Translations under genes and position numbers: made by a program
Notes under the pieces: generated by a model
Database searches by the model: none
The model's input: the letters and a program-made list of their open reading frames with translations, nothing else
What the model was told of the DNA's origin: nothing
Shown here: one piece after another, positions 4,940 to 30,373 of the stretch
How positions within the stretch are numbered: position 1 is the first letter of the stretch
How the letters are laid out: each line of letters begins with the position of its first letter
Assembly: GCA_038056445.1 (NCBI GenBank)
Contig: JBBUFP010000014.1
Span: 1-31,463 of the forward strand
Direction: 5' to 3'
Source: Patescibacteria group bacterium
GTDB taxonomy: Bacteria > Patescibacteriota > Minisyncoccia > Phycocordibacterales > DSPV01
Length of the DNA: 31,463 bases

Positions 4940-5512
4940 ATGAATAACAACTTGAAAACAAAAATCAAAAATCTCAAACTGATGGTCACCGATTTTGACG
5001 GCGTGTGGACGGATGGTAAGGTTTATTTTTCTCAAACCGGAGAGGAAACGGTGCTTTGTAGCCGGAAGGACACGCTTCGGATAAAGGAGATAAAAGCATT
5101 AGGCGTTGATATCGTGGTTATCTCAAAAGAGGGAAACCCGGTAGTTATGGCGCGTTGCGAGAAGATGAAGGTGGAATGTTTCCAGGGAGTGGATGATAAA
5201 TTGCCGCTGCTCAAGCAGCTTCTTGAGAAGAAAGGTGTTCGGCCGGAAGAGACCGCTTTTGTCGGCGATGACATCAATGATGTGAAATGTTTAAAGTTTG
5301 TCGGCTTGCCGATAACGGTTGCCGATGCTCACAATGATTGCAAAAAAGTCGCGCTTTATACGACCACTCGTAAAGGCGGCGACCACGCGATGCGCGAGAT
5401 TTTTGATTTGATTCTTTGGTCTCAAACCGCGGTGTTTTTTGTTGGTTTACCAGCAGGTTCGGCCGCCATCAACTATAACGGTGCTACCGGTCATAAAAGA
5501 AGAAGCGTCTGA
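4940..5512 (+). CDS. KdsC-like HAD phosphatase (Kdo-8-P / Kdn-9-P / Neu5Ac-9-P phosphatase family)
   Basis: DFDGVWTDG motif I, VISKE motif II, K, GDDIND motif IV and GGDHAMRE. Confidence 0.85.
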   Translation: MNNNLKTKIKNLKLMVTDFDGVWTDGKVYFSQTGEETVLCSRKDTLRIKEIKALGVDIVVISKEGNPVVMARCEKMKVECFQGVDDKLPLLKQLLEKKGVRPEETAFVGDDINDVKCLKFVGLPITVADAHNDCKKVALYTTTRKGGDHAMREIFDLILWSQTAVFFVGLPAGSAAINYNGATGHKRRSV

Positions 5513-6286
5513 ACACATAAAAAGCACCACCCCTTTGTATTCGTCGGGCTTAGCCATTCGGCCGAGGGGAATTTGTTTAGCTAATTTTGCCACGAATTCG
5601 TCTGGCTGATTGTTGTAGACGCCGCCGAAAGCCACGGCGTTTGAACGCACGCCTTTATCGGCCCAATAAGTGGCGAGGTATTTGGAAAGACCAATTAGTC
5701 CGTGCTTGACCGCCGAATAAGTTACCGGCTTGACCGGCTGAACGGCATCTTTTAAACCCGGCTTTTTATACAATTCCTGATTGGGCGCCACGATGCCAAG
5801 GTCCGAGGCGATGTTTAAAATAACACCCTTGCCGTTTTTAGCCATCAACGCGCCGATGTGCTTGCTCATTAAGAAAGCGCCGGTCAAACCGACGGCGATA
5901 TCGTTGTTCCAGTGCTCGAGAGGAAAGTTTTCCAAACGGGAAAAGTTTTTCATCCCATCTTCCACTTTCGGGTTATTGGCGGCGTTGTTGATGAGGATGC
6001 CAATTTGTCCCACTTCGGCGGTGATTTTTTTTACCACCGAGGCAATTTGCTTTTCATCGGTAATGTCAAGCCGATAACTGAAAACTTTTTTCGGATAAAG
6101 TTTGTTCAACGGTAAAACGGTTGCCTTTAATCTTTTTTCATCTATATCAGTCAAAATCGCGCGACCACCGCCTTCCAGAATCGCTTCGGTGTGGCGCTTG
6201 CCCAGCAAGCCGGCGGCGCCGGTGATGACCGCGACGGCGTTTTTTAAATTGAATGTCCCCAGGGTTTTAGCTATTGTTTTATTCAT
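5447..6286 (-). CDS. SDR oxidoreductase, PtmA-like
   Basis: TGAAGLLG, NNAA, NIAS..G, YSAVK and DGG motifs. Confidence 0.85.
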   Translation of the reverse strand: MNKTIAKTLGTFNLKNAVAVITGAAGLLGKRHTEAILEGGGRAILTDIDEKRLKATVLPLNKLYPKKVFSYRLDITDEKQIASVVKKITAEVGQIGILINNAANNPKVEDGMKNFSRLENFPLEHWNNDIAVGLTGAFLMSKHIGALMAKNGKGVILNIASDLGIVAPNQELYKKPGLKDAVQPVKPVTYSAVKHGLIGLSKYLATYWADKGVRSNAVAFGGVYNNQPDEFVAKLAKQIPLGRMAKPDEYKGVVLFMCSDASSFMTGSTVIVDGGRTCW

Positions 6287-6290
6287 TGAT

Positions 6291-7118
6291 CTATTTTTTT
6301 ATCAAGTTTTTAATAAAATTTATATAACTTTTTAAGGTTTCTTTTTCTTTGCCATCCTCGCCGCGGGCAACTTGAAGAATTATACTTCCCTGGTATTTAT
6401 TTTTCTTCAGTGTTCTGAAGAATTTTTCAAAGTTAACATTTCCAGCGCCGAGAGGAACTGTCGTGCCATGAAGCAGCCGGTCTTTAATATGGATGTTGGC
6501 GATGTATGGCGACAAAGTGTTTAATTCTTCTACCACATTATAACCCAAGGCAGCGCTATTACCGCTATCATAATTGGCTTTTATGGTTTTGCTATTAAAT
6601 CTTTTAAGCAACGACAGAAATCTTTTGGGCGGCAAATCGGTTTCTAATCCAATAGTGATGCCCAAGCTTTTTGCCAGTGGCCTAACTTGACTTAAGGCGT
6701 CGATTAGTTCTTTTTCTTCGCCATCGGTTTTTATTGAGGAATTATCCACCAAAGGGATTTCTATGTTTTTTGCGCCAATTGCCGCCGCCGCTTTCAGCAA
6801 ACGCTTTAGGACGAGCAAGTTTTGTTTTTTAACTTTGGCTGTTACGCGAAAAAAAGGAACACGCATAAAGTAATCGGCTAAGATATGGCGAACTGCCACA
6901 CCATACTTTTTCTGGAGCCGGTTTATTTTCTTTAAGCCAGCTTTGGACCAAAGGGGATTTTTCTCATAATGTTCTTTATCAAAAATAAATTCAATTTCAT
7001 CAAGCCCGACTGCTTTGGCCGAGGGAAATTCGTTTTCCCAGTTTTCAAAAGGGAAAAATTGGATTGGTCGTTCGCGTCTCGGCGTTAGGCGACCTTGTAT
7101 TATGCCAATTTTAAACAT
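6291..7118 (-). CDS. Xylose-isomerase-like TIM-barrel protein (sugar-phosphate isomerase/epimerase family)
   Basis: GIIQGRL start, LETD, YDSGN, HIKD and LGAGNV motifs. Confidence 0.75.
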   Translation of the reverse strand: MFKIGIIQGRLTPRRERPIQFFPFENWENEFPSAKAVGLDEIEFIFDKEHYEKNPLWSKAGLKKINRLQKKYGVAVRHILADYFMRVPFFRVTAKVKKQNLLVLKRLLKAAAAIGAKNIEIPLVDNSSIKTDGEEKELIDALSQVRPLAKSLGITIGLETDLPPKRFLSLLKRFNSKTIKANYDSGNSAALGYNVVEELNTLSPYIANIHIKDRLLHGTTVPLGAGNVNFEKFFRTLKKNKYQGSIILQVARGEDGKEKETLKSYINFIKNLIKK

Positions 7119-7126
7119 TTAGTTTT

Positions 7127-8896
7127 TTATAGATTTATTTTTTTACCTGAAGCTAGCGACCTTTTCATTGCTACGATAATTTCCATGACGGGCAAATTTT
7201 CCCTGATGCCATTTGTCGGTTTGTTTTTGCTCGCGATAAGATTTAGAAAGTGTCTCGTTTCTTCCAAGAACATGTCGTTGCGGTTGAAATTCGCTGGTTG
7301 CTGGAACTCTCGGACTTTTCCATCAAGAGGAATTAGTTTCAATTTGCCGTCAAAATAGTCCCATCTTAAGCGGCCTTTTTCACCAGTCGCTTCCAGAAAG
7401 CGGACAGCTGGCTGCTTGAAATAATCCAAATGAAGTTCAACATTAAAGTGATTATAGCGCCAAATCGCGGAGACGCAATTTTCAGCGTCAGTCTCCAGGT
7501 CGCCGACTTTGCCGCCGGCGGCAAAAACCCAATTGGGCTTGCCGAAGAGCCAAAATAGAAAATCAATTTCATGGCTTTGGGTAGTAATGGCTCCGCCGCC
7601 TAGATTTTTTCGGCTGGCATAAGACACTTTGTAACTTTCCCATGAATGCCAGTCAGTGACCCTTTCTCCAATGTGCGCCTCCACTGATATTATCTGACCA
7701 AGCTCATTATTTTCCAGATTTTTTTTGAATTCTTTAAGCAGGGGATGGAAACGGTGATTGAAAGCGACCAAGGCGACCAGTTTCCTTTTTTCAATTTCCT
7801 TCTCTAATTTTTTAACTCCAACCATTGTGTCGGAAAGTGGTTTTTCAATCATGACATGGCAACCGGCTTGGGCCGCTTTCAGTGCCGTCCGGACATGCAA
7901 GCTTGTTGGGTTGGTAATAATGGCGGCCATCGGTTGCTCTTTCAGAGCGGCGTCAAGATCTTGATAAACTTTTAGGTTTGGGTTTTTACTCAAAAATTCA
8001 TCGCCGAACGATTTAGTGCCCAAACCGGTTCTGAAGATTATAATATCGGAAGGTTGGTAGCCCAAAGCAAGCAGGTTTTCCGTATGGCGTTTACCTATAC
8101 TTCCCAAACCGCAGATAAGGATCCTTTTGGAATTGCCATTTATTTTGTTTTCGTTAGGATAATTGGCTTTTAAGTAATCAGATACTTGGAACTTCTGATT
8201 CTTAAGAAGAGTTTCAACATACTTCAAGTCACTTTGGGTGTCAATGTCGCCGATGTCGGGAGTTAGGAAAGCAAGAATCTTGGGACCATGAATGACGGGA
8301 TTTTTTAAGACGAACGAGCTTTTGAGTATATCAACATAACTGTCGGGTTTGAAGGTTGGCGGAAACGATTGGCGGTGGAGGTTGTGATAATCGGGACGGG
8401 GGTCGTTTGGAAATAGGCCGACAAAAAATTTACCCTCAAGGGCGAAACATTTCTGTGGTACCGTATTTATTTTATGGCCGGAGCGCAGGCTTGTCGCTTC
8501 CGGATGTTTTAGCATTGTCTCTATGGCCTCATTTATTTTCTCCGGAGCGCGGAGCGGGGAAGTTGGACGGAGATGAACAAAATAATCCGGAATTTTTCCT
8601 TCGTTCTTTTGGAGCCATTCTAGCGCGTGGATAACAAATTCTCGGTCGGTTGAGGTGTCGCCGGAGATTTCAGCGGGGCGTAAGAATGGAACTTCAGCGC
8701 CGTATTTTTTGGCAAGGTCGGCGATTTCCTGGCTGTCGGTTGAAACTATAATCCGCGCGATTTTTTTTGTCAGTTTCGCGGCGGCGATGGAGTAGGCAAT
8801 TAGCGGAAAACCGCCGATTGGCAGGATATTTTTTTTCGGAATGCTTTTTGAGCCGCCCCGGGCCGGAATAAGAGCGTAAATAAGTTTTTTATTCAT
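7127..8896 (-). CDS. Fusion of a CMP-nonulosonate synthetase (NeuA family) and a Gfo/Idh/MocA oxidoreductase
   Basis: N-terminal half: PARGGSKSIPKKN, STD, EVPFLRP, LRPTSPLR, DIDT..D. C-terminal half: ILICGLGSIGKRH, EKP, GGGAITTQSHEID. Confidence 0.85.
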   Translation of the reverse strand: MNKKLIYALIPARGGSKSIPKKNILPIGGFPLIAYSIAAAKLTKKIARIIVSTDSQEIADLAKKYGAEVPFLRPAEISGDTSTDREFVIHALEWLQKNEGKIPDYFVHLRPTSPLRAPEKINEAIETMLKHPEATSLRSGHKINTVPQKCFALEGKFFVGLFPNDPRPDYHNLHRQSFPPTFKPDSYVDILKSSFVLKNPVIHGPKILAFLTPDIGDIDTQSDLKYVETLLKNQKFQVSDYLKANYPNENKINGNSKRILICGLGSIGKRHTENLLALGYQPSDIIIFRTGLGTKSFGDEFLSKNPNLKVYQDLDAALKEQPMAAIITNPTSLHVRTALKAAQAGCHVMIEKPLSDTMVGVKKLEKEIEKRKLVALVAFNHRFHPLLKEFKKNLENNELGQIISVEAHIGERVTDWHSWESYKVSYASRKNLGGGAITTQSHEIDFLFWLFGKPNWVFAAGGKVGDLETDAENCVSAIWRYNHFNVELHLDYFKQPAVRFLEATGEKGRLRWDYFDGKLKLIPLDGKVREFQQPANFNRNDMFLEETRHFLNLIASKNKPTNGIRENLPVMEIIVAMKRSLASGKKINL

Positions 8897-8909
8897 TTTT
8901 ATAATATGA

Positions 8910-8937
8910 AATATAGCTCATGTTAAGATTTTGTCAA
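8910..8937 (-). promoter_or_regulatory. Sigma70-like promoter for the NeuA-Gfo / TIM-barrel / SDR unit
   Basis: TTGACA(8937-8932)-16 nt-TATATT(8915-8910), 13 nt before ATG 8896; no SD. Confidence 0.65.
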
Positions 8938-8948
8938 TGGCCGTTTTT

Positions 8949-10220
8949 TTATCCAATCCACCCAAGTATTTTTTTGAGCGAATCGGGAGTGATTATTTTA
9001 TTTGGTTGTTGGTATTGTTTTTCTAAGGCGTTGTTTTTAAAGGATTGGAGCAAAGAACGCAATTCATCTATGCCGGTTATAAATCTTTTAATAGCGAAGA
9101 AGGAACGGCCCGATTCTATTTGGGGCAGTTTGGAAAGATTCACAAAAATCGCGTCTTTGTTCATTGCCAAAGGAATAAAATTAGTAGTAGAAACACCGGC
9201 GATATAAAGCTCGCTCAAGCCAATGAGCTCGTTGTTGTCGGCAATCGGATTCATAAATTTGACCCCATAGCGATTAAGTTTCTGGTACTGGCCGATGTCT
9301 TCCGAAGGGTGGGGTTTGAATAAAATATCAAATTCTGATTGAGGGCAAATTTCCCGAAGGGTCTTGATAATCGTTTCCGTCAGCTGATATTGTTCTTGGT
9401 CGGTGAGGACGGCAATATCTTTTCTGTTAAAGGGCGTGGAGTAGAAAATAATATTTCGTTTGGACCGGTCAATATTGTGCCGTTTAGCCAATTCCTGGCG
9501 TTTATTTTTGTCATTGGCTAGCTGATTTTTCATTTGTTCACTAAGGTAAAAATCTAAATAACCGACCACGGTCATTTTTTCTTTAGGGATGCCTCTCTCA
9601 ATAAAAAATTCTAGAGTTTGTTCGTTGATGACGCCAAACCTTTTGGCTTTGCCGCCGCCAATCATTCCCTTTGACCAATTTCTCGGTTTATCAAGGACAA
9701 AACCAAGCAAAAAGTTTTTGATTTTGAGGTAGAGTGGTTTGCCGAAACGATAGCTAAACTTGCGCCAAGCGGGCGTTTCTTTTTTTAATAAAATTCTCTG
9801 ACCCGGGTAAGTGAGCGCCCATTGAAGCACCATAGTGTCAATTTGCCGTTGATTGGCTTGTTCCATAAGATAGCCCGAATAGAAACCTTGGTCGTTGGTG
9901 GCGATTATTTTTACCGGGCGCTCCTTATCAAGTAATTTATTAATTTCTTCGGTATAATGTTTATGATTTTTCAAGATCGCGTAAAAAGGTATGTATCTTG
10001 ATAAAAAATTAATTGCCGGCGGTTCAACCGCATAGAACGGGTGTTGATTGATTCTGGCGTATTCCAGCATTTTGCCGTAGGATTTTCTGCCGAAAATAAT
10101 CAGGAATTTGACTTCATAATGCTCGGCTATGAAAGGCAAAAGTTTTTCAAAATATTTAAAACTCCCCACATAATGGGGGATTAAAAAGAGTAATGGTTTA
10201 GAATGGGGTTGCGTTGGCAT
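8949..10220 (-). CDS. GT-B fold putative glycosyltransferase with HP and ST motifs (candidate sialyl/NulO transferase)
   Basis: RPVKII..ND, VLQW, VVGY, FKPHPSED and GVSTT resemble the HP and S(S/T) motifs of bacterial GT-B sialyltransferases. Confidence 0.55.
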   Translation of the reverse strand: MPTQPHSKPLLFLIPHYVGSFKYFEKLLPFIAEHYEVKFLIIFGRKSYGKMLEYARINQHPFYAVEPPAINFLSRYIPFYAILKNHKHYTEEINKLLDKERPVKIIATNDQGFYSGYLMEQANQRQIDTMVLQWALTYPGQRILLKKETPAWRKFSYRFGKPLYLKIKNFLLGFVLDKPRNWSKGMIGGGKAKRFGVINEQTLEFFIERGIPKEKMTVVGYLDFYLSEQMKNQLANDKNKRQELAKRHNIDRSKRNIIFYSTPFNRKDIAVLTDQEQYQLTETIIKTLREICPQSEFDILFKPHPSEDIGQYQKLNRYGVKFMNPIADNNELIGLSELYIAGVSTTNFIPLAMNKDAIFVNLSKLPQIESGRSFFAIKRFITGIDELRSLLQSFKNNALEKQYQQPNKIITPDSLKKILGWIG

Positions 10221-10281
10221 AATTTTGTGTTAATATGCCAATGCTAGCAGATTTAGCCGATAGTTTCAAAAAAATAACAAT

Positions 10282-11154
10282 ATGGCAAAGGATTTCTCTA
10301 TTACAGTCGGCAATAAAAAGATTGGCCACAATCATCCGGTTTTTATCATTGCGGAAATCGGCATCAATCATAATGGCGATTTAGATATAGTTAAAAAACT
10401 TATTGATGTGGCGGTAGACGCGGGCGCCGACGCGGTTAAATTTCAAAAGCGGACCATTGAGGTTGTCTATATGCCGGAAGCTCTGGCCGCGCCGCGCGAA
10501 AGCCCATTCGGTAAAACCAACGGTGATTTGAAGAAGGGTTTGGAATTTGGCGTCAAGGAGTATAAAACGATAGACGGATATTGCCGGCAGAAGGGCATTC
10601 TTTGGTTTGCTTCCTGTTGGGATGAGGGGGCGGTGGATTTTATTGAGAAATTTAATCCGCCGGTTTACAAAATTGCTTCGCCTTCTTTAACTGACCATGG
10701 CCTACTGCGCCACATCAAAGCGAAAAAGAAGCCCATTATTCTCTCAACAGGGATGAGCGATTTGGCGATGGTCAGAAAAGCGGTCTCAGTGCTCGGCAAG
10801 AAAAATCTGGCGTTGATGCATTCCGTTTCCACTTATCCGGCTTCGCATACGGAGCTTAACCTTTTATGTATTCCAACGCTTAGAAAGACCTTCGGTTTAC
10901 CTACGGGTTATTCTGGTCACGAGGTTGGGATAACTTCGCCCTTGGCGGCTGTGGCGCTGGGCGCTTGCCTTGTGGAGAGGCACATCACTCTTGACCGAGC
11001 GATGTGGGGTTCCGACCAAGCCGCTTCGCTTGAGCCATACGGTTTCAAGAAAATGATTATCTATATTCGCCAGTTTGAAGCGTCTTTGGGCGATGGAGTC
11101 AAAAGGATTATGGAATCCGAAGTGCCGGTTTTGAAAAAGCTGCGGCGGAAATAA
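10282..11154 (+). CDS. neuB: NeuB-family nonulosonate synthase, short form without the C-terminal antifreeze-like (SAF) domain
   Basis: IIAEIGINHNG, KFQKR, STGM, HSVSTYP, GYSGHE, ERH.TLDR and GSDQAASLEP; the protein ends at 290 aa. Confidence 0.9.
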   Translation: MAKDFSITVGNKKIGHNHPVFIIAEIGINHNGDLDIVKKLIDVAVDAGADAVKFQKRTIEVVYMPEALAAPRESPFGKTNGDLKKGLEFGVKEYKTIDGYCRQKGILWFASCWDEGAVDFIEKFNPPVYKIASPSLTDHGLLRHIKAKKKPIILSTGMSDLAMVRKAVSVLGKKNLALMHSVSTYPASHTELNLLCIPTLRKTFGLPTGYSGHEVGITSPLAAVALGACLVERHITLDRAMWGSDQAASLEPYGFKKMIIYIRQFEASLGDGVKRIMESEVPVLKKLRRK

Positions 11155-11156
11155 AA

Positions 11157-11921
11157 ATGGCGAAAAAACAAGATAAAAAATTGATTTACGCTTTGATTGG
11201 CGCCCGCGGCGGTTCTAAAGGTATTCCTCGTAAGAATATTGTGCCGATTGTTGGCCATCCTTTAATTGCTTATTCCATTGCGGCGGCAAAATTGGCAAAA
11301 AATATTGATCGGATAGTTGTGTCTACTGACAGTGAGGCAATTGCGGCAGTGGCGAAAAAATATGGCGCTGAAGTGCCGTTTATGCGTCCAGCCAAAATTT
11401 CCGGCGACCAATCTTTGGATGTAGAATTTTTTCGGCATGCTTTGGATTGGTTTAAAAAAAATGAAGAAAGAATGCCTGATTTTATCGTTCATCTCCGACC
11501 AACTATCCCCGTTCGGGAAGTTTCCGTTCTTGATAAAGCTATTTCAGAAATGCTCGCCGATAAAGATGCTACCGCGCTTCGTAGCGCCGAAAAAGTTCCT
11601 CCGTCTTCAATTTTCAAATCTTTTCGCCTGAAAGATTCTTACTGCGAATTTTTCGGCAAAGAATTGTTTGCACCCAACGAGGAATTTTTTAATTATCCCC
11701 GCCAGCAATTGCCGAAAACCTACCATGTCAACGGGTATATTGATGTTATAAACGCTCGCACTTTCCTTAAGACCGGTTTACTTTACGGGGAAAAGATGAG
11801 AGCATTTATAAACGAAGAACCGGCAGTTGATATTGATGAACCAGCGGATTTACTTAAAGCTGCTGAAGAATTAAAAAAGCCGCAATATAACGATTTACAT
11901 AATTTTTTAAAAAGTATTTAA
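11157..11921 (+). CDS. neuA: CMP-nonulosonate synthetase (acylneuraminate cytidylyltransferase family)
   Basis: ARGGSKGIPRKN, STD, EVPFMRP, LRPT.P.R, NGYID and DIDEPAD. Confidence 0.9.
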   Translation: MAKKQDKKLIYALIGARGGSKGIPRKNIVPIVGHPLIAYSIAAAKLAKNIDRIVVSTDSEAIAAVAKKYGAEVPFMRPAKISGDQSLDVEFFRHALDWFKKNEERMPDFIVHLRPTIPVREVSVLDKAISEMLADKDATALRSAEKVPPSSIFKSFRLKDSYCEFFGKELFAPNEEFFNYPRQQLPKTYHVNGYIDVINARTFLKTGLLYGEKMRAFINEEPAVDIDEPADLLKAAEELKKPQYNDLHNFLKSI

Positions 11922-11931
11922 TTTGAGTTTT

Positions 11932-12732: not shown

Positions 12733-12737
12733 TTGTT

Positions 12738-13730: not shown

Positions 13731-13738
13731 AGAAATAA

Positions 13739-14722: not shown

Positions 14723-14735
14723 GTGTCGGAACGGG
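14709..14735. terminator. Intrinsic terminator-like hairpin between convergent genes
   Basis: Perfect 10-bp stem cccgttccga / tcggaacggg with a 7-nt loop; followed by ATTTTTTA on the minus strand. Confidence 0.7.
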
Positions 14736-15122: not shown

Positions 15123-15174
15123 AAGTTACCGCATTATTATTTTCTTGTCAAGAAACTACAATATGTGCTAATCT
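15123..15174. promoter_or_regulatory. Back-to-back promoters sharing a TTGTCAA -35 region
   Basis: Minus strand: TTGACA(15151-15146)-17 nt-TAACTT(15128-15123). Plus strand: TTGTCA(15145-15150)-18 nt-TAATCT(15169-15174) with an extended TG. Confidence 0.55.
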
Positions 15175-15218
15175 AGACTGGTGAAAAAATCAGTCCAATT
15201 ATTATTTATTGCTTTGCC

Positions 15219-18434: not shown

Positions 18435-18446
18435 TGACAATTTATA

Positions 18447-22545: not shown

Positions 22546-23426
22546 ATCGTTATCTAATCGTCAATTATCATTATATTCGCGATGAGCAATCGAGCGGCAT
22601 TAATGCCTGTCGGGTTGACCATTTTGCCGAACAGATAAATTTTTTAAGTAGCCAATATTCCATTGTGACGCTTCAAGAGCTTTATGACAACGCGCGAAAG
22701 AGCGCGCCGGGCAATTTCTGTTCCCTCACCTTTGATGATGGTCTTGTTGAACACTACGCAGTTGCTTATAAGTTTTTGCGCGAAAAAGGTCTGCCCGGGG
22801 CTTTCTTCATCATTGGTATGCCGCTCCAAGAACAAAAAATACCCTTGACGCACAAATTGCATTTATTGCTCTCCCATAAAACGGCGAAAGAACTTGTCTC
22901 CATGTTTCATTCCTATTTTCACGGGCGTTACTTAATAGACGATTCAATTCGCATTAATCCCCGCCGGAGATTTGATGATGTTCTTACCTCCAATCTCAAA
23001 GAAACACTCATTGGTCTGCCGATTACAGAACGCCAGGATTTTATTGAGAACGTTTTTAAGGATTTCCATAAATCTGAAGCGAAGTTATGCGCTGACCTGT
23101 TTATGTCTCCTTCGTCTCTGAAGGAAATGGGTGAGCACAGTATGGAAATCGGTTCTCATGGCTACAGTCACCGGTCCCTGGAAACCTTGTCTTTTGAAGA
23201 ACAAAAGGCGGATATTGAAGCGAGTCGCCGTGCCATCGGTGATATTACCGGGAAGAATCCGATGATATTTTCTTATCCTCACGGCCGTTACAATGATGAT
23301 ACAATAAGAATTCTTAATGACCTGGGTTTTTCTATGGCGGTGATCTTGGGCGGGCGAGCAATAACGAACCTCGATGAGAGATTTTCGATTCCTCGTTATG
23401 ACACAAACGACATTAAAATAATTTGA
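22542..23426 (+). CDS. Polysaccharide deacetylase (NodB / CE4 family)
   Basis: NYH, LTFDDG, EIGSHGYSH, FSYPHG and IPRYD. Confidence 0.85.
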   Translation: MNRYLIVNYHYIRDEQSSGINACRVDHFAEQINFLSSQYSIVTLQELYDNARKSAPGNFCSLTFDDGLVEHYAVAYKFLREKGLPGAFFIIGMPLQEQKIPLTHKLHLLLSHKTAKELVSMFHSYFHGRYLIDDSIRINPRRRFDDVLTSNLKETLIGLPITERQDFIENVFKDFHKSEAKLCADLFMSPSSLKEMGEHSMEIGSHGYSHRSLETLSFEEQKADIEASRRAIGDITGKNPMIFSYPHGRYNDDTIRILNDLGFSMAVILGGRAITNLDERFSIPRYDTNDIKII

Positions 23427-23432
23427 AATCTT

Positions 23433-24389
23433 ATGAACAAACAAAAACAACTAACCAAAGATTTTTTCAATGATGCGTCAAGAGAGTGGTTTGAACGAAC
23501 CTATGACCCGGCGGAACAATTTTTGAAGTTTCCGGGCAACAGGGCGAGAATGGAAATAGCTTTAAGCGAGATTAAAAATTTATCGGTTAAGGGCGCGTTT
23601 CTTGACATTGGTTGCGGTACGGGGCAACTGGTGATTGAACTTTTGAAAAAAGGGGTTCGGGCTACCGGGATTGATGTTGCCGAGAAAATGATTGAGATTG
23701 CGAAAAATAATCTTGCTAAAGAAAAACTTTCATTTAATCCCAATCCAAACGAAATCTTTGCGGTGATGAATTTAGCTGAACTTGGTAAAACCACGGCTCA
23801 TTATGACGCGGTGACCGCCTTGGGGCTTCTTGAGTATTTATCAAAAGATGATGAGCTCTTTTCTGTTCTTAAAAAAAATGTGAAAAAGGACGGTTATGCG
23901 TTCGTGGAATGCCGGAATAAATTTTTTAATCTTTTCTCGGTCAATAATTATACCGAGTCAACGGCGAAGACCAAGATGCTCGCCCCGCTTATCAGAGAAA
24001 TGGCCGAAGTTGATAAATACAGCCCGATTTCTTCAAGGAATATTCCCGCGATTCAGGCGGAGGTCTCTCAAAAGATTGCTGACTTTTTGAAAGAGAGTGC
24101 CGGTAAAAGCGAATGGCTCGAAACATCTATTCCGAAGCACCTCGACTATCCCCAAGAAATGATACGCCGTCAACACACGCCAAAAGAACTTGAAGCGTCG
24201 GCTCATCGTTTTGGTTTTACTTTAAAATATGTTGTCTATTGGCACGCCCACCTTTACCCGCCGTCTTTTAAGAAAGAATTTCCCAGAATCTATAATAAAA
24301 TATCATTCCTCGAAGCCCCGCTTGGGTATACTTCACTTGGCGCTTGGATGTGCTCGTCTTTTGTTGCCGTTCTAAAGAAACAGGAATGA
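23433..24389 (+). CDS. Class I SAM methyltransferase
   Basis: FLDIGCGTG, GIDVAEKMI and YDAVTALGLLEY. Confidence 0.85.
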   Translation: MNKQKQLTKDFFNDASREWFERTYDPAEQFLKFPGNRARMEIALSEIKNLSVKGAFLDIGCGTGQLVIELLKKGVRATGIDVAEKMIEIAKNNLAKEKLSFNPNPNEIFAVMNLAELGKTTAHYDAVTALGLLEYLSKDDELFSVLKKNVKKDGYAFVECRNKFFNLFSVNNYTESTAKTKMLAPLIREMAEVDKYSPISSRNIPAIQAEVSQKIADFLKESAGKSEWLETSIPKHLDYPQEMIRRQHTPKELEASAHRFGFTLKYVVYWHAHLYPPSFKKEFPRIYNKISFLEAPLGYTSLGAWMCSSFVAVLKKQE

Positions 24390-25423
24390 AAGATAAATTA
24401 AATGAAGAAAAAAAGCGGGTTTTTATCACCGGCATTACCGGTCAGGATGGCTCTTATCTATCGGAATTTTTGGCAAAAAAGAATTGTGAAATTTTTGGTT
24501 TGACTAGCAAAAAATATTCCGATAATGCGGTTTCAATGGCAGCGTTAAAAAAGCTTGGTGCTCAAGTCATTTTAATTGACGGCGATATCACTGACACTGG
24601 TTTGCTGGCGAAAATTTTTAAGGATATAAAACCGCACGAAATTTATAATTTGGCTGCAATCTCAAGCGTCAGCGAATCTTTCAAGGTTCCCGAAAAAGTA
24701 ATGGAGGTTAATTTTCACGCTTTTAAAAGGTTAGTTGATGAGGCAATAACTGTTGTGCCGAAAGTTAGAATTTATCAGGCCTCGTCCAGTGAAATGTTCG
24801 GCCAAGCGTCTGCGCCACAGAATGAAAAAACCGATTTTATGCCGGTTAGTCCTTACGGCAAATCAAAACTTCGCGCTTATCAGGAAGTCGTCTTGGAGTA
24901 TCGTAGGAAAAAAGGCGTTCATATTTGTTCCGGAATTATGTTTAATCACGAATCGCCGAGGCGGGGCGAAGGTTTCGTGACTTCAAAAATTATTACCGAT
25001 TTATCTAAAGTAAAATTAGGCCTGCTTGCTCACCTTGAATTAGGGAATTTGGATGTGGAGAGGGATTGGGGTTTTGCCGGAGATTATGTGAAAGCTATGT
25101 ATTTGATTCTGAATTATGATAAAGCCGATGATTATGTGATTGCCACCGGCAAAAGTCACACTGTGCGGGATTTTGTGAATGAGACGGCGAAAAATCTCGG
25201 TTTGAAAATAAAATGGCGGGGACGGGGCGAAAAAGAAGAAGCCGTTGACGACAATGGAAAAATTTTAGTGAAAGTTAATCCGATTTTTTACCGCCCTAAA
25301 GAACTTAGCGTGACTATTGGTGATAGCGCTAAGGCGAGAAAAATTCTTGGTTGGAATCCGGTAGTAAATTTTGAAGGGTTGGTAAAAATGATGGTGAAAG
25401 CCGCCATGGAGCATTATGTTTGA
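24386..25423 (+). CDS. gmd: GDP-mannose 4,6-dehydratase
   Basis: ITGITGQDGSYL, YNLAA, ASSSE, SPYGKSK, NHESPRRG..FVT.KI and GNLD..RDWGFAGDYV; ATGA overlap at 24386. Confidence 0.9.
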   Translation: MKDKLNEEKKRVFITGITGQDGSYLSEFLAKKNCEIFGLTSKKYSDNAVSMAALKKLGAQVILIDGDITDTGLLAKIFKDIKPHEIYNLAAISSVSESFKVPEKVMEVNFHAFKRLVDEAITVVPKVRIYQASSSEMFGQASAPQNEKTDFMPVSPYGKSKLRAYQEVVLEYRRKKGVHICSGIMFNHESPRRGEGFVTSKIITDLSKVKLGLLAHLELGNLDVERDWGFAGDYVKAMYLILNYDKADDYVIATGKSHTVRDFVNETAKNLGLKIKWRGRGEKEEAVDDNGKILVKVNPIFYRPKELSVTIGDSAKARKILGWNPVVNFEGLVKMMVKAAMEHYV

Positions 25424-26396
25424 TTATTCAAAAACAAAAAAAGAAAATATTACCTGTAACCTTTGCGGTAGCGATGATTTTTCTCTGCTAGCTAAAAAAT
25501 CAAAAAATAATTTGCCGGTGGCAACGGTAATGTGCCGAAATTGTTCTCTAATCTATATCAATCCGCGAATGACAAGCGAGGACTACGACAATTATTATAA
25601 ATATTTTTATCGAGTGGACAGAAATACGATTAAAGGCACAACCACTGACACCAGATTGGAACGGAATTTTGAAAACGCCAGAAAATTCGGCCGAGCGCTT
25701 GGTCGGCGCTACCAAAAATTTTTTAAGCCGGGGCTGGCGGTTGATGTCGGTTCTTCCACCGGCGGCGTGCTCTACGGCTTGCGAGAAGCGCTGCCAGCTT
25801 TAAAAATTCTTGGCATTGAACCGTCGGTGGCGGAATCGGAATTGGCAAGAAGTCGCGGGGTGCCGACCAAAACCGTTTTGTTTGAAAATTTCCGCGATGT
25901 TTTGCCCGAAGTGCCAGCTAACATTTTTTGTGTTCAGAGTTTGAACCATCTTTTGGACCCCAAGGGCTTTATGGCTTGGGCTTATGAGGCGTTGACTGCT
26001 GGTGGTTCGCTGTTTTTGGCGGTGAAAAATTTCCGACATCAGGCGCGCCGCGCCGGCTCAATAGAAGCCGGCGTTCAAATTGACCACCCTTATATGTTCA
26101 CGCCCGAGACCTTGCGGGCCATGATTGAATCCGTTAGTTTTAGAATAGTGGTTTTTGAAATTGACGAGGGTAAAAGCCAAGATGAATTATTAATTCAACG
26201 AGCCGAGGGTCTGCCCAGGCATCACATTCGAGTGGTGGCGGTGAAGGATAATTTAAATAAAGTTCAAGTAGTTTTGCCAAGTTTTTGGGCACAGCTTAAG
26301 CTTCGTTTAGCGCTTAGCTGGCCGATTTTGAAGCTGTTTTACCTCGCCAAGTATTCCCATTGGTTGACTTGGCAAAAATCAAAGAGTGTAGTATAG
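25416..26396 (+). CDS. Class I SAM methyltransferase with a Zn-ribbon N-terminus (paralog of 13739-14722)
   Basis: CNLC...CRNCSLIYINPRMT, DVGSSTGG, GIEPS, QSLNH, NFRHQ and IDH..MFTPE. Confidence 0.8.
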   Translation: MFDYSKTKKENITCNLCGSDDFSLLAKKSKNNLPVATVMCRNCSLIYINPRMTSEDYDNYYKYFYRVDRNTIKGTTTDTRLERNFENARKFGRALGRRYQKFFKPGLAVDVGSSTGGVLYGLREALPALKILGIEPSVAESELARSRGVPTKTVLFENFRDVLPEVPANIFCVQSLNHLLDPKGFMAWAYEALTAGGSLFLAVKNFRHQARRAGSIEAGVQIDHPYMFTPETLRAMIESVSFRIVVFEIDEGKSQDELLIQRAEGLPRHHIRVVAVKDNLNKVQVVLPSFWAQLKLRLALSWPILKLFYLAKYSHWLTWQKSKSVV

Positions 26397-26404
26397 TGTT
26401 GGTA

Positions 26405-27523
26405 ATGACAAAAAGACGGCTCAAAACAATAGCGATTCCGGGTACTGACAGAATCCTTGGTGGCGAGGAAGTTTTTTTCGTGGCGGAAATTGGCAAGGGC
26501 TTCATTCAGACCAAAGAAGACCAGCCGATGAGAGAATATCTGGCCAATGCCAAACGATTGATTGATGCAGCGGTGGCTGCCGGTGCCGACGCGGTTAAAT
26601 TCCAAACTCACGAGGTTAGTGATGAGCAAGCTGACATACCGATTGTCTCGCTTCATTTTAAGGGTGCCGAGCGTTATGCTTGGGTAAAAAGGAACACCGA
26701 AGCAACACCGCTTTTTTTCTGGCGAGAGTTGAAAAATTACGCCGCTCGCAAAGGCATTATTTTTTTCTCCACCGCCATGAGTCGGGGGGCGGCGGAAAAA
26801 CTTACCAAAGTTGATGTGCCGCTTTGGAAAGTTGGTTCTGGCGATGTGGAAGATTATGTTTTACTGGATTATCTCACCGGCACTGGCAAACCGGTCATCA
26901 TTTCCACCGGTATGGTTAGTTTTGCCGAGCTGGATGAAATCGTCGCTTATTTTAGAAAGCACTTAACCCCGTTGGCTATTTTGTATTGCGTCAGCGAATA
27001 TCCCTGCCCGCCGGAAAAATTTAATTTAGCCAGTATTGAAAAAATAAAAGAAAAATATCCGGAAGTCATTGTAGGCTTTTCTGACCATTCGGTGGGCGAT
27101 ATCAATCCGGTATTAGCCGCCGTTAAAGTCGGCGCGCGGATTGTGGAAAAACATTTTTCATTGGCGCGCGATTTGTGGGGTTCCGACCATAAGGTTTCCA
27201 TGATACCGGTCGAGTTTGCTGAAATGGTGCGCGCTGTGCGCGCCGGCGAACACAAAAAAGTCGCCCAGCAGAAATTTTACGGCAATAAAAATCGCGAGCT
27301 TGATGGTGCCACCAACCAATTCCGTCCTTACTTCAAGAAATTATTGGTGGCGGCGCGAGTTATCAAGAATGGTGAAAAGATTGCTAAGGATATGATTCAC
27401 GCCTTGCGCCCTGCGCTTCATCTTAAAGGTTTGCCATCGCGCGATTTTCATAAAGTAGTTGGCCGCGAAGTAATTCGCCAAATTAAAAAAGGTGAGCTGT
27501 TAACCAAGCAAAATGTTCGTTAA
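26405..27523 (+). CDS. neuB: NeuB-family nonulosonate synthase with SAF domain (divergent N-terminal motif)
   Basis: AEIG, KFQTH, KVGSGD, STGM, CVSEYP, GFSDH, EKH, GSDH and C-terminal ALRP...IKKGE. Confidence 0.85.
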   Translation: MTKRRLKTIAIPGTDRILGGEEVFFVAEIGKGFIQTKEDQPMREYLANAKRLIDAAVAAGADAVKFQTHEVSDEQADIPIVSLHFKGAERYAWVKRNTEATPLFFWRELKNYAARKGIIFFSTAMSRGAAEKLTKVDVPLWKVGSGDVEDYVLLDYLTGTGKPVIISTGMVSFAELDEIVAYFRKHLTPLAILYCVSEYPCPPEKFNLASIEKIKEKYPEVIVGFSDHSVGDINPVLAAVKVGARIVEKHFSLARDLWGSDHKVSMIPVEFAEMVRAVRAGEHKKVAQQKFYGNKNRELDGATNQFRPYFKKLLVAARVIKNGEKIAKDMIHALRPALHLKGLPSRDFHKVVGREVIRQIKKGELLTKQNVR

Positions 27524-28688
27524 ACCCAAACAAAAAAGAAAAGTTTGTTTCGTCATCACGAGTTTTATCCATTACTCGCGCGGTCTTTTTATTTTGGAAG
27601 AATTGAAGAATCGGCCGGATGTGGAACTACACATTGTCATTAGCGGCACCGCTTTGCTCGCCAAATATTCTTCAAAATTTTCCTATGTGAAAAATATTCT
27701 GGAGCGCGAGGGTTATAACAATCTTCACGAACTTTATTTTAATTTGGAAGGCGATAGTCATCTTACCAAAGCCAAAACCGCCGGCATTGGTATTGTGGAA
27801 TTTTCCACTTTTTTCAATCAGCTTAGACCGGATGTGGTAGTATTGCGCGGCGACCGGTTTGAAGTGCTGTCGGCCGCCGTGGCCGCCGCTTACTTGCAAA
27901 TTCCCATTGCCCATCTTGAGGGTGGCGACATTACCGGTTCCATAGACGAGAGCGTCCGCCATGCCATTACCAAATTATCGCATTTACATTTTGCCACCAA
28001 TGAAGACGCCAAGAAAAGAATTTTGCGGATGGGGGAAAATCCCAAATATGTTTTCAATTTTGGCAGTCCGGAAATTGAAGTGGTTTATCGGATAATCAAT
28101 GGCAAACACCATGTTGATTTTAGCCAGACCGGTTCCGGCGCGCCGTTTGATATCAAATTGGATTTTTTGATGGTGATGTATCAGCCGGTCACGACCGAAA
28201 CCGAACGATTGGCTGAATACACCAAAACGATTCTGGAAGCTGTCCACGAGCTCACGATTCCGACGCTTTGGTTCTGGCCCAACTTTGACACCGGTGCTGA
28301 AGAAATTTCCCATACCTTGCGGGTTTTTCGCGACCAGGTGAAGGAACACAAAATTCGTTTTATGCGTTATTTGCCGCCACGCGATTTTATCTGGCTTTTG
28401 AAGCACACTCGGGCGCTGGTCGGCAATTCTTCGGCTGGTATTAAAGAATCCTCTTATCTTGGCGTGCCGGTGGTAAATATCGGCAATCGTCAGGGTTCGC
28501 GTTTGCGCACTAAAAATGTTTTGGATGTGCCGCACAAAAAAGAGCCCATCAAAAAAGCCATTGAAAAACAAATGAAAAAAGGCCGCTATCAACCGTCCAA
28601 ACTTTATTTCGCCAACGGCACCGCCCGCAAAATCGCCAAAACTTTAGCTGAAGCCAATCTTTATGTCCAAAAAAAATTCCACAACTAA
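27513..28688 (+). CDS. neuC: UDP-GlcNAc 2-epimerase (hydrolysing), NeuC family
   Basis: GDRFE, AHLEGGD.TGSIDE..RHAITKLSHLHF and GNSSAGIKE; lies between neuB and neuA. Confidence 0.85.
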   Translation: MFVKPKQKRKVCFVITSFIHYSRGLFILEELKNRPDVELHIVISGTALLAKYSSKFSYVKNILEREGYNNLHELYFNLEGDSHLTKAKTAGIGIVEFSTFFNQLRPDVVVLRGDRFEVLSAAVAAAYLQIPIAHLEGGDITGSIDESVRHAITKLSHLHFATNEDAKKRILRMGENPKYVFNFGSPEIEVVYRIINGKHHVDFSQTGSGAPFDIKLDFLMVMYQPVTTETERLAEYTKTILEAVHELTIPTLWFWPNFDTGAEEISHTLRVFRDQVKEHKIRFMRYLPPRDFIWLLKHTRALVGNSSAGIKESSYLGVPVVNIGNRQGSRLRTKNVLDVPHKKEPIKKAIEKQMKKGRYQPSKLYFANGTARKIAKTLAEANLYVQKKFHN

Positions 28689-29400
28689 ACCGAAGATTCT
28701 CGCGGTGATTACCGCCCGGGGCGGGTCAAAGGGGATTCCTGGGAAAAATATCAAACCCTTGGGCGGAAAACCTTTGATAGTTTATTCCATAGACGCGGCA
28801 AAGAAAAGCAAATTAATTACTCACACTATTGTTTCCACTGATGATAAAGAAATTGCCAAAGTGGCGAAAAAATTTGGCGGTGAAGTGCCATTTTTGCGTC
28901 CCAAAGAATTAGCTGAAGACACAACGCCCCATGTGCCGGTGATGAAGCACGCCATTGAATTTATGGAAAAAAAGTTGGGCATTGTTTTTGATTATGCCGT
29001 AATTTTACAACCAACTTCGCCGTTTCGGACTACCGATGACATAGACGAAACCTTGCGGAAGTTAATAGAAAACAAAGCCGATAGCGCGGTGACTTTGGTG
29101 GATGTCGGTAACGAACATCCGGTCAAAGCGAAAAAACTAGTGGGCGCTCGGGTTTTGCCTTATTGCTTACCGGAACCGGAAGGCACTCGCCGGCAAGATT
29201 TCCCGCCAGCTTACCGCCGCAGCGGCGCGATTTACGCTATGCGCCGCGACTTGATTATCAAAGACGGCAGATTATACGGCGCTCATATTGTCGGCCATAT
29301 TGTTCCAACCGAACGCTCGGTGGACATTGATTCGCCGTTTGAATGGTTCCGGGCCGAGTGGATGTTGGAGGACTTGAAGAAAAAAAATTATGAGTTTTAA
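28663..29400 (+). CDS. neuA: CMP-N-acetylneuraminate synthetase family
   Basis: ARGGSKGIPGKN, STDD, EVPFLRP, LQPTSPFR, GAIY and DIDSPFE. Confidence 0.9.
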   Translation: MSKKNSTTKPKILAVITARGGSKGIPGKNIKPLGGKPLIVYSIDAAKKSKLITHTIVSTDDKEIAKVAKKFGGEVPFLRPKELAEDTTPHVPVMKHAIEFMEKKLGIVFDYAVILQPTSPFRTTDDIDETLRKLIENKADSAVTLVDVGNEHPVKAKKLVGARVLPYCLPEPEGTRRQDFPPAYRRSGAIYAMRRDLIIKDGRLYGAHIVGHIVPTERSVDIDSPFEWFRAEWMLEDLKKKNYEF

Positions 29401-30373
29401 AATTCTAAACACTATTGGCGAAAATTTCGCCCCCGAAGCCAAAAAGATTTTGGCAACTTTAGGCGCGATTGATTATAAAATTCCGACGCAGGAAAAACTG
29501 GCAGAAATCATCGGCGACTATGACGTGGCAGTCATTGGTCTGGGTTTGAATTTTCACAAAGATATTTTGGATGCGGCCTGCCTGCCGGCAGGCAGGTCGA
29601 AAAAACTTAAAGTGATTGCCACAGTAACAACTGGACTTGATCATATTGATCTTATCGCCGCCAAAGAGAAGGGGATTAAGGTTTTGAGTTTGCGCGGTGA
29701 AAATGAATTTTTGGACACCATTATCGGCACAGCCGAATTGGCTTTCGGTCTGCTCATTGATTTAGTTCGCTTCACGCCTTGGGCTTTTGAAGATGTTAAA
29801 AATTATCGCTGGCGACGCGAGGACTGGAAAGGCGCGAGTTTGTATGGCAAAACTTTGGGTGTTGTCGGTTTGGGGCGATTGGGAAAAATGATGGCACGAT
29901 TTGGTAAAGCGTTTGACATGAAAGTTTTATTTACCGACCCAAATGTTTCGCCAAAAGATTTTCCTGATTATGAAAAAACCGATTTGGAAAACCTGCTCCG
30001 GCGAAGCGATGCGGTTTCATTGCACATTCATTTGACCAAAGAAACAGAAAATCTTTTGGCGAAAAAGGAATTCGCCCTAATGAAAAAGGGCGTGGTTTTG
30101 ATTAACACCGCCCGGGGCAAAATCGTCAATGAAAAAGATTTGCTGGCGGCTCTTGAAAACGGTCAATTGGGTGGCTACGCTGCTGATGTTTTGACCGACG
30201 AACTTTCTTTTGAAAAAACTGGTTTCAAAAATCATCGGCTAGTTGAATATGCCAAAACTCACCGTAATGTCATCATCGTGCCACACATTGGTGGTATGAC
30301 CACTGACTCACGAATTGCCACCGACCTCTTTATGGCGGAGAAATTAAGAAAACAGCTGGCTAAAAATAGCTAA
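29390..30373 (+). CDS. D-isomer-specific 2-hydroxyacid dehydrogenase (SerA-like, no ACT domain)
   Basis: TTGLDHID, TAELAFGL, GVVGLGRLG, INTARG, DVL..E and PHIGG. Confidence 0.85.
   Translation: MSFKILNTIGENFAPEAKKILATLGAIDYKIPTQEKLAEIIGDYDVAVIGLGLNFHKDILDAACLPAGRSKKLKVIATVTTGLDHIDLIAAKEKGIKVLSLRGENEFLDTIIGTAELAFGLLIDLVRFTPWAFEDVKNYRWRREDWKGASLYGKTLGVVGLGRLGKMMARFGKAFDMKVLFTDPNVSPKDFPDYEKTDLENLLRRSDAVSLHIHLTKETENLLAKKEFALMKKGVVLINTARGKIVNEKDLLAALENGQLGGYAADVLTDELSFEKTGFKNHRLVEYAKTHRNVIIVPHIGGMTTDSRIATDLFMAEKLRKQLAKNS
29577..29596. repeat. Perfect 20-bp palindrome CCTGCCTGCCGGCAGGCAGG inserted within the dehydrogenase CDS
   Basis: cctgcctgcc|ggcaggcagg is self-complementary and encodes part of ACLPAGR. 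Confidence 0.85.

Follow-up and report, generated by a model that had tools for sequence, protein, structure and literature searches.

The stretch of DNA analyzed here, 31,463 nucleotides long and referred to as the window (C14:1-31463 of the source genome, G000), comes from a groundwater metagenome-assembled genome (MAG) of the Saccharibacteria. It probably represents most of a surface-glycan locus of about 48 kb and of the Wzx/Wzy type, which is predicted to supply at least two, and possibly three, different 3-deoxy-2-ulosonic acids activated with cytidine monophosphate (CMP). Three synthases of the NeuB family and three or four NeuA proteins are encoded in the locus, which therefore holds at least two synthases and at least two CMP-nonulosonic acid (CMP-NulO) synthetases from different clades, as expected of a multi-NulO locus. 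An original prediction, made from the DNA letters alone, had proposed three parallel NulO modules that make several sugars of the neuraminic acid (Neu) or 3-deoxy-D-glycero-D-galacto-nonulosonic acid (Kdn) type. A Neu-type plus a Kdn-type output is plausible, as one NeuB architecture is tied to Kdn and a phosphatase of the haloacid dehalogenase (HAD) superfamily lies beside short NeuB genes in all six foreign contexts, with the products themselves being predicted. The division into three modules is a first approximation only, as the KdsC-like phosphatase, one dehydrogenase, one TIM barrel, the Gfo-NeuA gene and the first NeuB form one cassette across two divergent operons.

We called genes from the open reading frame (ORF) listing and searched them against Pfam and NCBIfam profiles. 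Every gene that had been listed was recovered at or near its predicted place. The earlier list had not counted four TagF-like transferases, one more glycosyltransferase of the GT-B fold, a Gmd-like dehydratase, a Wzx flippase, a GT4 glycosyltransferase, an RmlD-like reductase and a decayed sixth methyltransferase, nor a fourth NeuA fragment and a Wzy_C-TPR protein just past the window. Positions below are those of the window, and its genes lie on the forward strand unless the reverse strand is stated.

Three NeuB types and their partners

All three NeuB genes of the genome lie within the window. NeuB1 (10282-11154; NeuB 258 bits) is a short form without an SAF domain, NeuB2 (16410-18440, reverse strand; NeuB 260, SAF 36.5, AP_endonuc_2 75 bits) is a 676-aa fusion of NeuB-SAF with a metal-binding TIM barrel, and NeuB3 (26360-27523; NeuB 209, SAF 40 bits) is a NeuB-SAF protein. 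Their frames are intact and keep the family-invariant residues, as do those of the three full NeuA genes and the NeuC gene. Pairwise identity among the three is 33-47%, with NeuB1 and NeuB2 the closest pair (46-47%). They score below the NCBIfam cut-offs for NeuB and PseI, and bit scores against PDB sequences do not discriminate among the NeuB, LegI and PseI types. In a quick maximum-likelihood tree of 99 NeuB domains, each window protein falls in a separate supported clade (Shimodaira-Hasegawa-like approximate likelihood ratio test [SH-aLRT] values 97, 97 and 100), nested among sequences from other phyla or from other groups of the candidate phyla radiation (CPR). The sequence sets were gathered by similarity to each paralog, without characterized NeuB, LegI, PseI, BT1714 or Serratia NeuB proteins, and the clustering of the sets is therefore partly built in; the informative feature is the nesting of the window proteins. 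Judging from this comparison, the three NeuBs are not recent copies, and each comes from its own widespread clade with typical partners. Some relatives carry a further, very divergent NeuB type (G004, G007, G009 and G017; contigs L049, L050, L051 and L032), with frames of 520-547 aa that form their own long-branched clade.

The short NeuB1 belongs to a very large family of proteins of 288-299 residues that lack the SAF domain, share 64-68% identity across Verrucomicrobiota, Acidobacteriota and CPR groups, and are conserved at the level of 95% or more in 121 of 290 positions. The C-terminal tail of the family is basic, and Ser occupies the Glu134-equivalent position. In each of the six foreign contexts that were read, a HAD phosphatase (Hydrolase_3) adjoins the short NeuB gene, once fused to an SIS isomerase domain, and the order Gfo, CTP_transf_3, NeuB, short-chain dehydrogenase (SDR), HAD was found on two unrelated contigs, with a TIM barrel gene ahead of it on one. 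The window contains a KdsC-like HAD phosphatase (4940-5512), a candidate ulosonate-phosphate phosphatase that lies above the cut-off of the TIGR01670 subfamily (126.8 bits, cut-off 107) and scores 115 bits on the Kdn-9-phosphate (Kdn-9-P) phosphatase model NF058599 (cut-off 180). The next genes, all on the reverse strand, encode the PtmA-like SDR1 (5447-6286; adh_short_C2 155 bits), which is the cassette-type SDR, a stand-alone TIM barrel of the UlaE-like sugar-phosphate 3-epimerase type (6291-7118; AP_endonuc_2 88 bits; best PDB match UlaE, 45 bits), and the CMP-sugar synthetase NeuA1 (CTP_transf_3), which is fused to a Gfo/Idh/MocA dehydrogenase domain (GFO_IDH_MocA) that makes up the C-terminal half of 7127-8896. 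The closest matches of this domain are sugar and inositol ring dehydrogenases. In the congener G002, the NeuA and Gfo/Idh/MocA genes are separate and overlap by 17 nt; relative to G002, the fusion is a 4-nt (TAAA) deletion at the junction (8130-8160), with loss of the NeuA stop codon. The SDR that follows the short NeuB on L055, L059 and L057 is 54-60% identical to SDR1 and only 34% identical to SDR2, and the TIM barrel of the L055 and L056 cassettes is 31-34% identical to the stand-alone barrel. Because the neighborhoods, the SDR and the TIM barrel all match foreign cassettes, we regard the genes at 4940-8896 and 10282-11154 as one conserved cassette and not as pieces of separate modules. NeuB1 is followed by the CMP-sugar synthetase NeuA2 (11157-11921; CTP_transf_3 75.6 bits), 50% identical to NeuA1, and by SDR2 (11923-12732; adh_short_C2 144 bits), which is only 31% identical to SDR1.

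The adjacency of the phosphatase in all six contexts and the lack of KdsA in the source genome suggest that the NeuB1 cassette specifies a phosphorylated route with redox tailoring. NeuB1 would join a sugar phosphate to phosphoenolpyruvate (PEP), and the phosphate would then be stripped by the KdsC-like phosphatase. As the conserved neighborhoods indicate, the Gfo/Idh/MocA domain, the UlaE-like barrel and SDR1 may tailor the sugar by oxidation, epimerization and reduction, and either NeuA1 or NeuA2 would activate the product, which could be Kdn, a Kdn epimer or a sugar that does not have nine carbons. A phosphorylated Kdn route has been established in Bacteroides thetaiotaomicron (BT1713-BT1715) and Prymnesium parvum, with a NeuB-family synthase, a KdsC-type HAD phosphatase and a CMP-sugar synthetase (PMC6200933). 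The window differs from this three-gene pathway in having the Gfo/Idh/MocA, UlaE-like barrel and SDR genes, a phosphatase below the Kdn-9-P phosphatase equivalog cut-off, and a synthase family with Ser in place of the Glu134-equivalent. Among relatives of the source genome, G055 has a NeuB1 ortholog and no KdsC match, and in G053 a KdsC-like gene adjoins a NeuA gene and occurs along with a fusion NeuB.

The architecture of NeuB2 is also widespread, with more than 2,400 full-length homologs in many phyla at 45-64% identity over the full length, and clusters with the same architecture were found among Pseudomonadota in the ESM Atlas. The gene was located in three foreign contexts: beside CTP_transf_3 and Gfo genes, with a classical NeuA-NeuB-NeuC set upstream and Wzx and Wzy_C-TPR close by; beside CTP_transf_3 alone; and beside methyltransferase, Maf and flagellin genes. 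The NeuB of Neisseria meningitidis contacts the N-acetyl group of its substrate through Arg314 (PMC8208679). In 115 of 121 members of the fusion family the equivalent residue is Gly or Ser, and a substrate without an N-acetyl group would therefore fit. There is one lead to the chemistry of this architecture, by analogy, which is Kdn in Serratia marcescens. In the KL1/KL2 capsule loci of that species, the NulO genes are limited to neuA and a neuB that carries an additional COG1082 domain, both of which the Kdn capsule requires. This capsule contains Kdn at about 20:1 over N-acetylneuraminic acid (Neu5Ac) and is lost on neuB deletion (PMC9000132). The likeness to the window lies in the architecture, namely a NeuB with a COG1082/xylose-isomerase-like domain, a NeuA partner and no need for NeuC, and the fusion family's loss of the Arg that contacts the N-acetyl group agrees with a Kdn product. 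Unlike the window, the Serratia locus is group-1-like and has a single NulO. From this precedent we infer that the NeuB2 fusion may make a Kdn-type nonulosonate that is not N-acetylated.

The two xylose-isomerase-fold domains of the window, which the original prediction had counted correctly, belong to different subfamilies. The model of the one fused to NeuB2 has a predicted local distance difference test (pLDDT) score of 95.8, and its best fold matches are 3WQO (MJ1311), UlaE and EndoIV. MJ1311, UlaE, endonuclease IV and ketose 3-epimerases are about equal in the fold search (template modeling [TM] scores 0.56-0.69), while a profile search placed MJ1311 (3WQO) and Mycobacterium tuberculosis endonuclease IV closest, ahead of epimerases. 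The E-D-H-E tetrad of epimerases is intact, with three further invariant histidines, and the HMMER alignment matches seven of nine endonuclease-IV ligands. On the model and sequence evidence, the domain may either provide the aldose, as an isomerase or epimerase, or take off a 9-phosphate, as a phosphoesterase. As the folds rank equally and the epimerase tetrad is intact, we keep an endonuclease-IV-like phosphoesterase as a minority reading only.

NeuB3 belongs to a family whose source names are largely those of CPR/Patescibacteria groups, and the Neu5Ac-type route that its module would provide is common among CPR bacteria. The sequence AEIGK[N/G]FIQ, which stands in place of EIGxNHNG, is a conserved family signature and not a sign of decay, and the metal-binding His and the Arg-Pro pair (the N. 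meningitidis Arg314-equivalent) are invariant in 120 sequences of the clade. On the N-acetylneuraminate synthase equivalog TIGR03569 the protein scores 236 bits, below the cut-off of 400. Its neighbors are NeuC (27513-28688), a hydrolyzing UDP-sugar 2-epimerase at 338 bits on TIGR03568 (cut-off 236), a model that also covers LegG-type enzymes, the CMP-sugar synthetase NeuA3 (28663-29400; CTP_transf_3 96.5 bits), whose best PDB matches are NeuA and CMP-Neu5Ac synthetases (96-127 bits), and a D-2-hydroxyacid dehydrogenase (29390-30373; 2-Hacid_dh_C 170 bits). A set of TagF-like, NeuB3, NeuC and NeuA3 genes recurs at 45-64% identity in other Saccharibacteria families (G017, G025, G037, G040 and G050). 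The G025 module includes the 2-hydroxyacid dehydrogenase and lacks a Gmd-like gene, and the dehydrogenase adjoins NeuA/NeuB in G003 (twice), in G025 and on the Taylorbacteria contig L060 (twice), where two NeuB-NeuA-dehydrogenase sets occur with a TagF-like gene and Wzy_C-TPR. In the predicted pathway, NeuC would convert UDP-GlcNAc to N-acetylmannosamine (ManNAc), NeuB3 would condense ManNAc with PEP, and NeuA3 would activate the product, a Neu5Ac-type sugar. We also considered whether the adjacent Gmd-like enzyme feeds NeuB3, giving a 9-deoxy sialic acid, and dropped this idea: adjacency of the two genes is confined to the genus, and all five of those genomes from other families have the module without a Gmd-like gene.

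A Neu5Ac-type product is taken as the default for the NeuB3 module. A legionaminic acid (Leg) or pseudaminic acid (Pse) product appears very unlikely, because G017 (100% complete) and G025 (98%), which both carry the NeuB3-NeuC-NeuA3 module, have no DegT aminotransferase, and no hexapeptide acetyltransferase was found in them. The window itself has no DegT or acetyltransferase among its profile matches, in line with the earlier observation that Leg/Pse aminotransferase and acetyltransferase genes are missing from it. That observation came with the proposal to search the rest of the genome for a Leg/Pse branch, and we found none. The source genome has no LegC/PseC-type aminotransferase: its sole DegT (C10:9212-10519) scores 213 bits on RfbH, 143 on PseC and 123 on LegC, with PseC and LegC cut-offs of about 420, and we rejected it as a Leg/Pse enzyme since it is RfbH/ColD-like and lies beside a canonical Gmd. 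No PseB/LegB dehydratase was found, as the Polysacc_synt_2 profile gave only weak matches to generic epimerases, and there was no match to a hexapeptide acetyltransferase (Hexapep; LegH/PglD type) in G000-G003, G017 or G025, a search that did not include the GNAT-type PseH. DegT-linked NeuBs do occur in other Saccharibacteria.

Glycan assembly and extent of the locus

Four TagF/TagB-like GT-B proteins are candidate ulosonic-acid transferases. One lies near the start of the window (TagF1, 2176-3555; Glyphos_transf 37.5 bits; BFO_1060_trans 48.7 bits, cut-off 200), and three are in tandem (18495-19862, 19859-21178 and 21175-22545; Glyphos_transf 37-52 bits; BFO_1060_trans 42-48 bits). All TagF-like copies of the genome lie in the locus; their pairwise identity is 26-42%, or 32-42% among the tandem copies. 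The BFO_1060 family is the best NCBIfam match of all four and outscores TarB for each, at 42-49 bits against an unreached cut-off of 200. A fifth, divergent GT-B protein, GTx (8949-10220, reverse strand), gives weak matches to A-2_8-polyST (22.7 bits, just under the cut-off) and BFO_1060 (29 bits), and neither GTx nor TagF2 has sequence relatives in the PDB. In Tannerella forsythia, TagB-like enzymes have been shown genetically to add Pse or Leg derivatives, and the BFO_1060 family consists of GT-B proteins with TagB/TagF similarity beside NulO biosynthesis genes, as in the window (PMC5420450). Tannerella has one such gene, whereas the window has four tandem or dispersed paralogs with scores far from the family cut-off. 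TagF-like genes also flank NeuB cassettes on the unrelated contigs L039, L059 and L060.

A Wzx-type flippase is encoded at 3497-4927 (Polysacc_synt 33.7 bits), and a Wzy_C-TPR protein of 748 aa just past the window (C14:32888-35134). Proteins of the latter type, of about 730-750 aa, recur beside NeuB/NeuA modules in Saccharibacteria, Parcubacteria and a non-CPR contig (L060, L056 and the P0039 contig), and this one could be a PglL-like oligosaccharyltransferase or ligase and not a polymerase. In the assembly that we envisage, a Bac_transf protein encoded elsewhere in the genome (contig C28) would initiate a lipid-linked glycan, the four or five TagF/TagB-like GT-B enzymes would transfer CMP-sugars onto this undecaprenyl-phosphate-linked glycan, methyltransferases and a deacetylase would decorate it, Wzx would flip it, and Wzy_C-TPR would polymerize or ligate it. 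The five methyltransferases that had been predicted are all present: MT1 (12633-13730) and MT2 (13739-14722), at 96 and 39 bits on Methyltransf_23; MT3 (15716-16399, reverse strand; Methyltransf_23 76 bits); MT4 (23433-24389; Methyltransf_25 57.5 bits); and MT5 (25416-26396; Methyltransf_23 42.8 bits), a paralog of MT2 at 40% identity. The deacetylase lies at 22542-23426 (Polysacc_deac_1 95.6 bits).

The source MAG comprises 457,640 bases in 40 contigs, and the original prediction of a CPR bacterium with a reduced genome is borne out by this assembly of about 458 kb; genomes of relatives range from 0.4 to 1.1 Mb. DNA nearly identical to the window occurs in groundwater, aquifer and drinking-water metagenomes. 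The original prediction had named mimicry among the possible roles of the glycan, and mimicry of a vertebrate is unlikely because the habitat is groundwater. By synteny the whole locus covers about 48 kb, some 10% of the assembly, because contig C10 is collinear with a congener contig and stops about 1.2 kb short of the window start. This upstream part (C10:1-11971; L018) carries a tRNA-Thr pair, five GT4 genes, a UDP-sugar dehydrogenase, the canonical Gmd (520 bits), the RfbH/ColD-like DegT and GtrA, a set that points to a 3,6-dideoxyhexose (colitose-like) branch within this glycan locus. Past the window, C14:31564-35134 (L019) encodes a 253-aa protein without a family match, a fourth NeuA fragment that is 57% identical to NeuA3 and interrupted by a scaffold gap, and Wzy_C-TPR, followed by housekeeping genes. 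In G002 and G003 the 2-Hacid_dh gene is directly followed by Wzy-TPR, while the source genome carries an extra insert between them that may hide a fourth module. The first gene of this insert encodes an EamA-family transporter (30383-31270; EamA 77 bits).

Competing explanations and known systems

Several points weigh against a locus for two or three different ulosonic acids. All protein functions of the locus are predicted ones, and the genome is only 79% complete. None of the three NeuBs or of the NeuAs reaches the NCBIfam equivalog cut-offs, NeuC is as near to LegG (187 bits) as to human GNE (183 bits) among its PDB matches, and the likeness of NeuB1 to BT1714 and of NeuB2 to the Serratia NeuB is drawn from gene context and architecture. 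The four genus genomes G000-G003, one of them 100% complete, have no PF00483 nucleotidyltransferase and no hexapeptide-repeat protein, and the genus therefore has no canonical ManC, RmlA or GlmU; no ManC- or GlmU-type nucleotidyltransferase was detectable, although the two Gmd proteins and NeuC need GDP-mannose and UDP-GlcNAc. A small cytidylyltransferase on contig C7 leaves CDP-glycerol possible as a TagF donor. Finally, the NeuB1 and NeuB2 routes could converge on the same sugar.

This last possibility can be stated as an explanation of its own, in which only Neu5Ac and Kdn are made. Both NeuB1 with its phosphatase and NeuB2 would then lead to Kdn, leaving the redox enzymes and methyltransferases to modify other residues of the glycan, for example 6-deoxyhexoses from the Gmd and RmlD-like enzymes. 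We consider this possible but doubtful. The literature ties both the phosphorylated route and the fusion architecture to Kdn, NeuB1 and NeuB2 are each other's closest paralogs, and G002 keeps the fusion while swapping NeuB1 within its clade, without the phosphatase, which suggests that NeuB1 is dispensable. However, each clade is conserved across phyla and has an active-site signature of its own (the E134-equivalent is S in NeuB1 and D in NeuB2, and SAF is absent from the former and present in the latter), both types co-occur with Gfo and NeuA in other genomes, and two routes to one sugar seem costly in a genome of about 0.5 Mb. Alternatively, the NeuB1 cassette may be a non-orthologous analog of the pathway for 3-deoxy-D-manno-octulosonate (Kdo) that yields an eight-carbon or other 3-deoxy-ulosonic acid. 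We know of no NeuB-family enzyme that makes Kdo-8-phosphate, and this is one reason to hold the idea unlikely. It draws on the top scores of the phosphatase, which are to KdsC models, in a genome without KdsA, and on short NeuB genes elsewhere that occur with SIS-domain isomerases, one of them fused to HAD, and with a KpsS/KpsC-like Capsule_synth transferase. Yet an SIS gene is missing from the window, the phosphatase reaches 115 bits on the Kdn-9-P phosphatase model as well, and the Prymnesium Kdn-9-P synthase rejected arabinose 5-phosphate (PMC6200933).

The TagF-like proteins lie above the Pfam Glyphos_transf cut-off, and they might be true polyol-phosphate transferases that build a teichoic-acid-like backbone on which ulosonic acids are minor decorations. 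The C7 cytidylyltransferase would fit such a backbone, but its 54 bits on the TagD model are far under the cut-off of 165. With the NulO-transferase-typed BFO_1060 family ahead of TarB for every TagF-like protein, a count of four or five transferases against four CMP-sugar synthetases, TagF-like genes beside NeuB cassettes in unrelated genomes, and no LytR-CpsA-Psr (LCP) ligase (PF03816) in G000, G001, G002 or G015, we regard a polyol-phosphate backbone as improbable. It is more improbable still that the locus is partly decaying or an assembly chimera with fewer working modules than its gene count implies. The methyltransferase remnant, the fusion by a 4-nt indel, a palindrome in frame in the dehydrogenase, the scaffold gaps at C14:31464-31563 and 32729-32828 and the MAG assembly all speak for such a state, but the NeuB, full NeuA and NeuC frames are intact with their family-invariant residues, several independent groundwater studies contain the window sequence at a word share of 94-100%, and long stretches share their gene order with G002. 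We continue to favor a locus for at least two different CMP-activated ulosonic acids.

A more far-reaching and tentative proposal joins two ideas, namely that the widespread Gfo/NeuA/short NeuB/SDR/HAD cassette, whether or not it includes a UlaE-like barrel, leads by way of a phosphorylated intermediate and tailoring by oxidation, epimerization and reduction to an undescribed 3-deoxy-ulosonic acid (a Kdn epimer or deoxy form, or a sugar that does not have nine carbons) and that the TIM barrel fused to NeuB2 is a new ulosonate-phosphate phosphoesterase and not an isomerase, the latter because seven of the nine endonuclease-IV metal ligands are kept. If both were true, then together with the Neu5Ac-type route Saccharibacteria would have an anionic coat that varies by strain and contains three different ulosonic acids, assembled by TagF-like enzymes and fed mostly from glycolytic intermediates rather than from nucleotide sugars.

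The original prediction had also considered the multi-NulO system to be possibly undescribed, which is overstated. Multi-NulO loci are also known in Campylobacter. [quoted passage not shown] Unlike the window, Leptospira has aminotransferases for di-N-acetylated Leg-type sugars and lacks the NeuB-TIM fusion, the Gfo cassette and the TagF-like battery, and it is a spirochete pathogen, not a CPR epibiont. Actinobacteria are known hosts of cultivated Saccharibacteria. The walls of actinomycetes contain methylated Kdn polymers, the teichulosonic acids (Kdn-Gal, often methylated), which resemble the predicted glycan in their monoderm envelope, Kdn-type sugar and methyl substituents (PMC11481543). 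The window locus differs in having Wzx and Wzy_C-TPR, in a genome that, like three relatives, has no LCP ligase. What is new, then, is the combination of three synthase types, a TagF-like battery, a CPR setting and two uncharacterized cassettes, in a kind of system that is already known. In our literature search, no paper linked Saccharibacteria, Patescibacteria or CPR to nonulosonic or sialic acid biosynthesis. The analysis also draws attention to two NeuB subfamilies that are very large, span several phyla and have conserved partners: the short NeuB with its HAD phosphatase, and the NeuB-TIM fusion.

Module exchange, transcription and minor features

Whole modules are swapped among congeners, and the locus behaves like a serotype-variable glycan island. 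G002 has nearly all of the same genes in rearranged order, with NeuB1 replaced by a different member of the short-NeuB clade, no KdsC, and the fusion kept. G003 keeps the flanks and the NeuB3 block, and its NeuB1/NeuB2 region is replaced by another set of NeuC-like, NeuA, dehydrogenase and NeuB genes. Like other CPR bacteria, Saccharibacteria live on bacterial hosts to which they attach, and the surfaces of all these bacteria have hardly been studied. Of 61 genomes sampled from the order, 25 have NeuB genes; together with the investment of about 10% of a genome of about 0.5 Mb and the exchange of modules, this points to a strongly selected, strain-variable acidic coat, which would be relevant to host recognition and phage defense.

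The modules had been described as separately promoted. The seven orientation blocks of the window and promoter-like sites in the divergent gaps, the best of which are at 8937-8910 (matching at 11 of 12 positions) and 18474-18447, fit this description, although as evidence they are weak. A strong terminator-like hairpin lies after MT1-MT2 (14709-14735), and an Rfam search of the window gave no match. The other genes of the window encode an RmlD-like 4-keto-6-deoxyhexose reductase at its start (3-872; RmlD_sub_bind 151 bits; TIGR01214 142 bits, below the cut-off of 224), which is collinear with G002 and G003, a GT4 glycosyltransferase (883-2115, reverse strand; Glycos_transf_1 107 bits), and the divergent Gmd-like GDP-sugar 4,6-dehydratase (24344-25423; GDP_Man_Dehyd 358 bits; TIGR01472 342 bits, below the cut-off of 415).

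The sixth methyltransferase is a remnant on the forward strand. An intact gene in G002 (L021:3319-4212, about 280 aa) matches 15164-15702 by tblastn in two frames, with about 170 nt deleted, and the ORF at 15219-15542 is a fragment of this pseudogene. A perfect GC-rich palindrome of 20 nt, CCTGCCTGCCGGCAGGCAGG, has three copies in the genome: at 29577-29596 of the window, in frame inside the 2-hydroxyacid dehydrogenase; at about position 294 of C10, close behind the tRNA-Thr pair, where the glycan locus has its upstream edge; and at about position 4470 of C29. It resembles a small palindromic element that is mobile or repeated.

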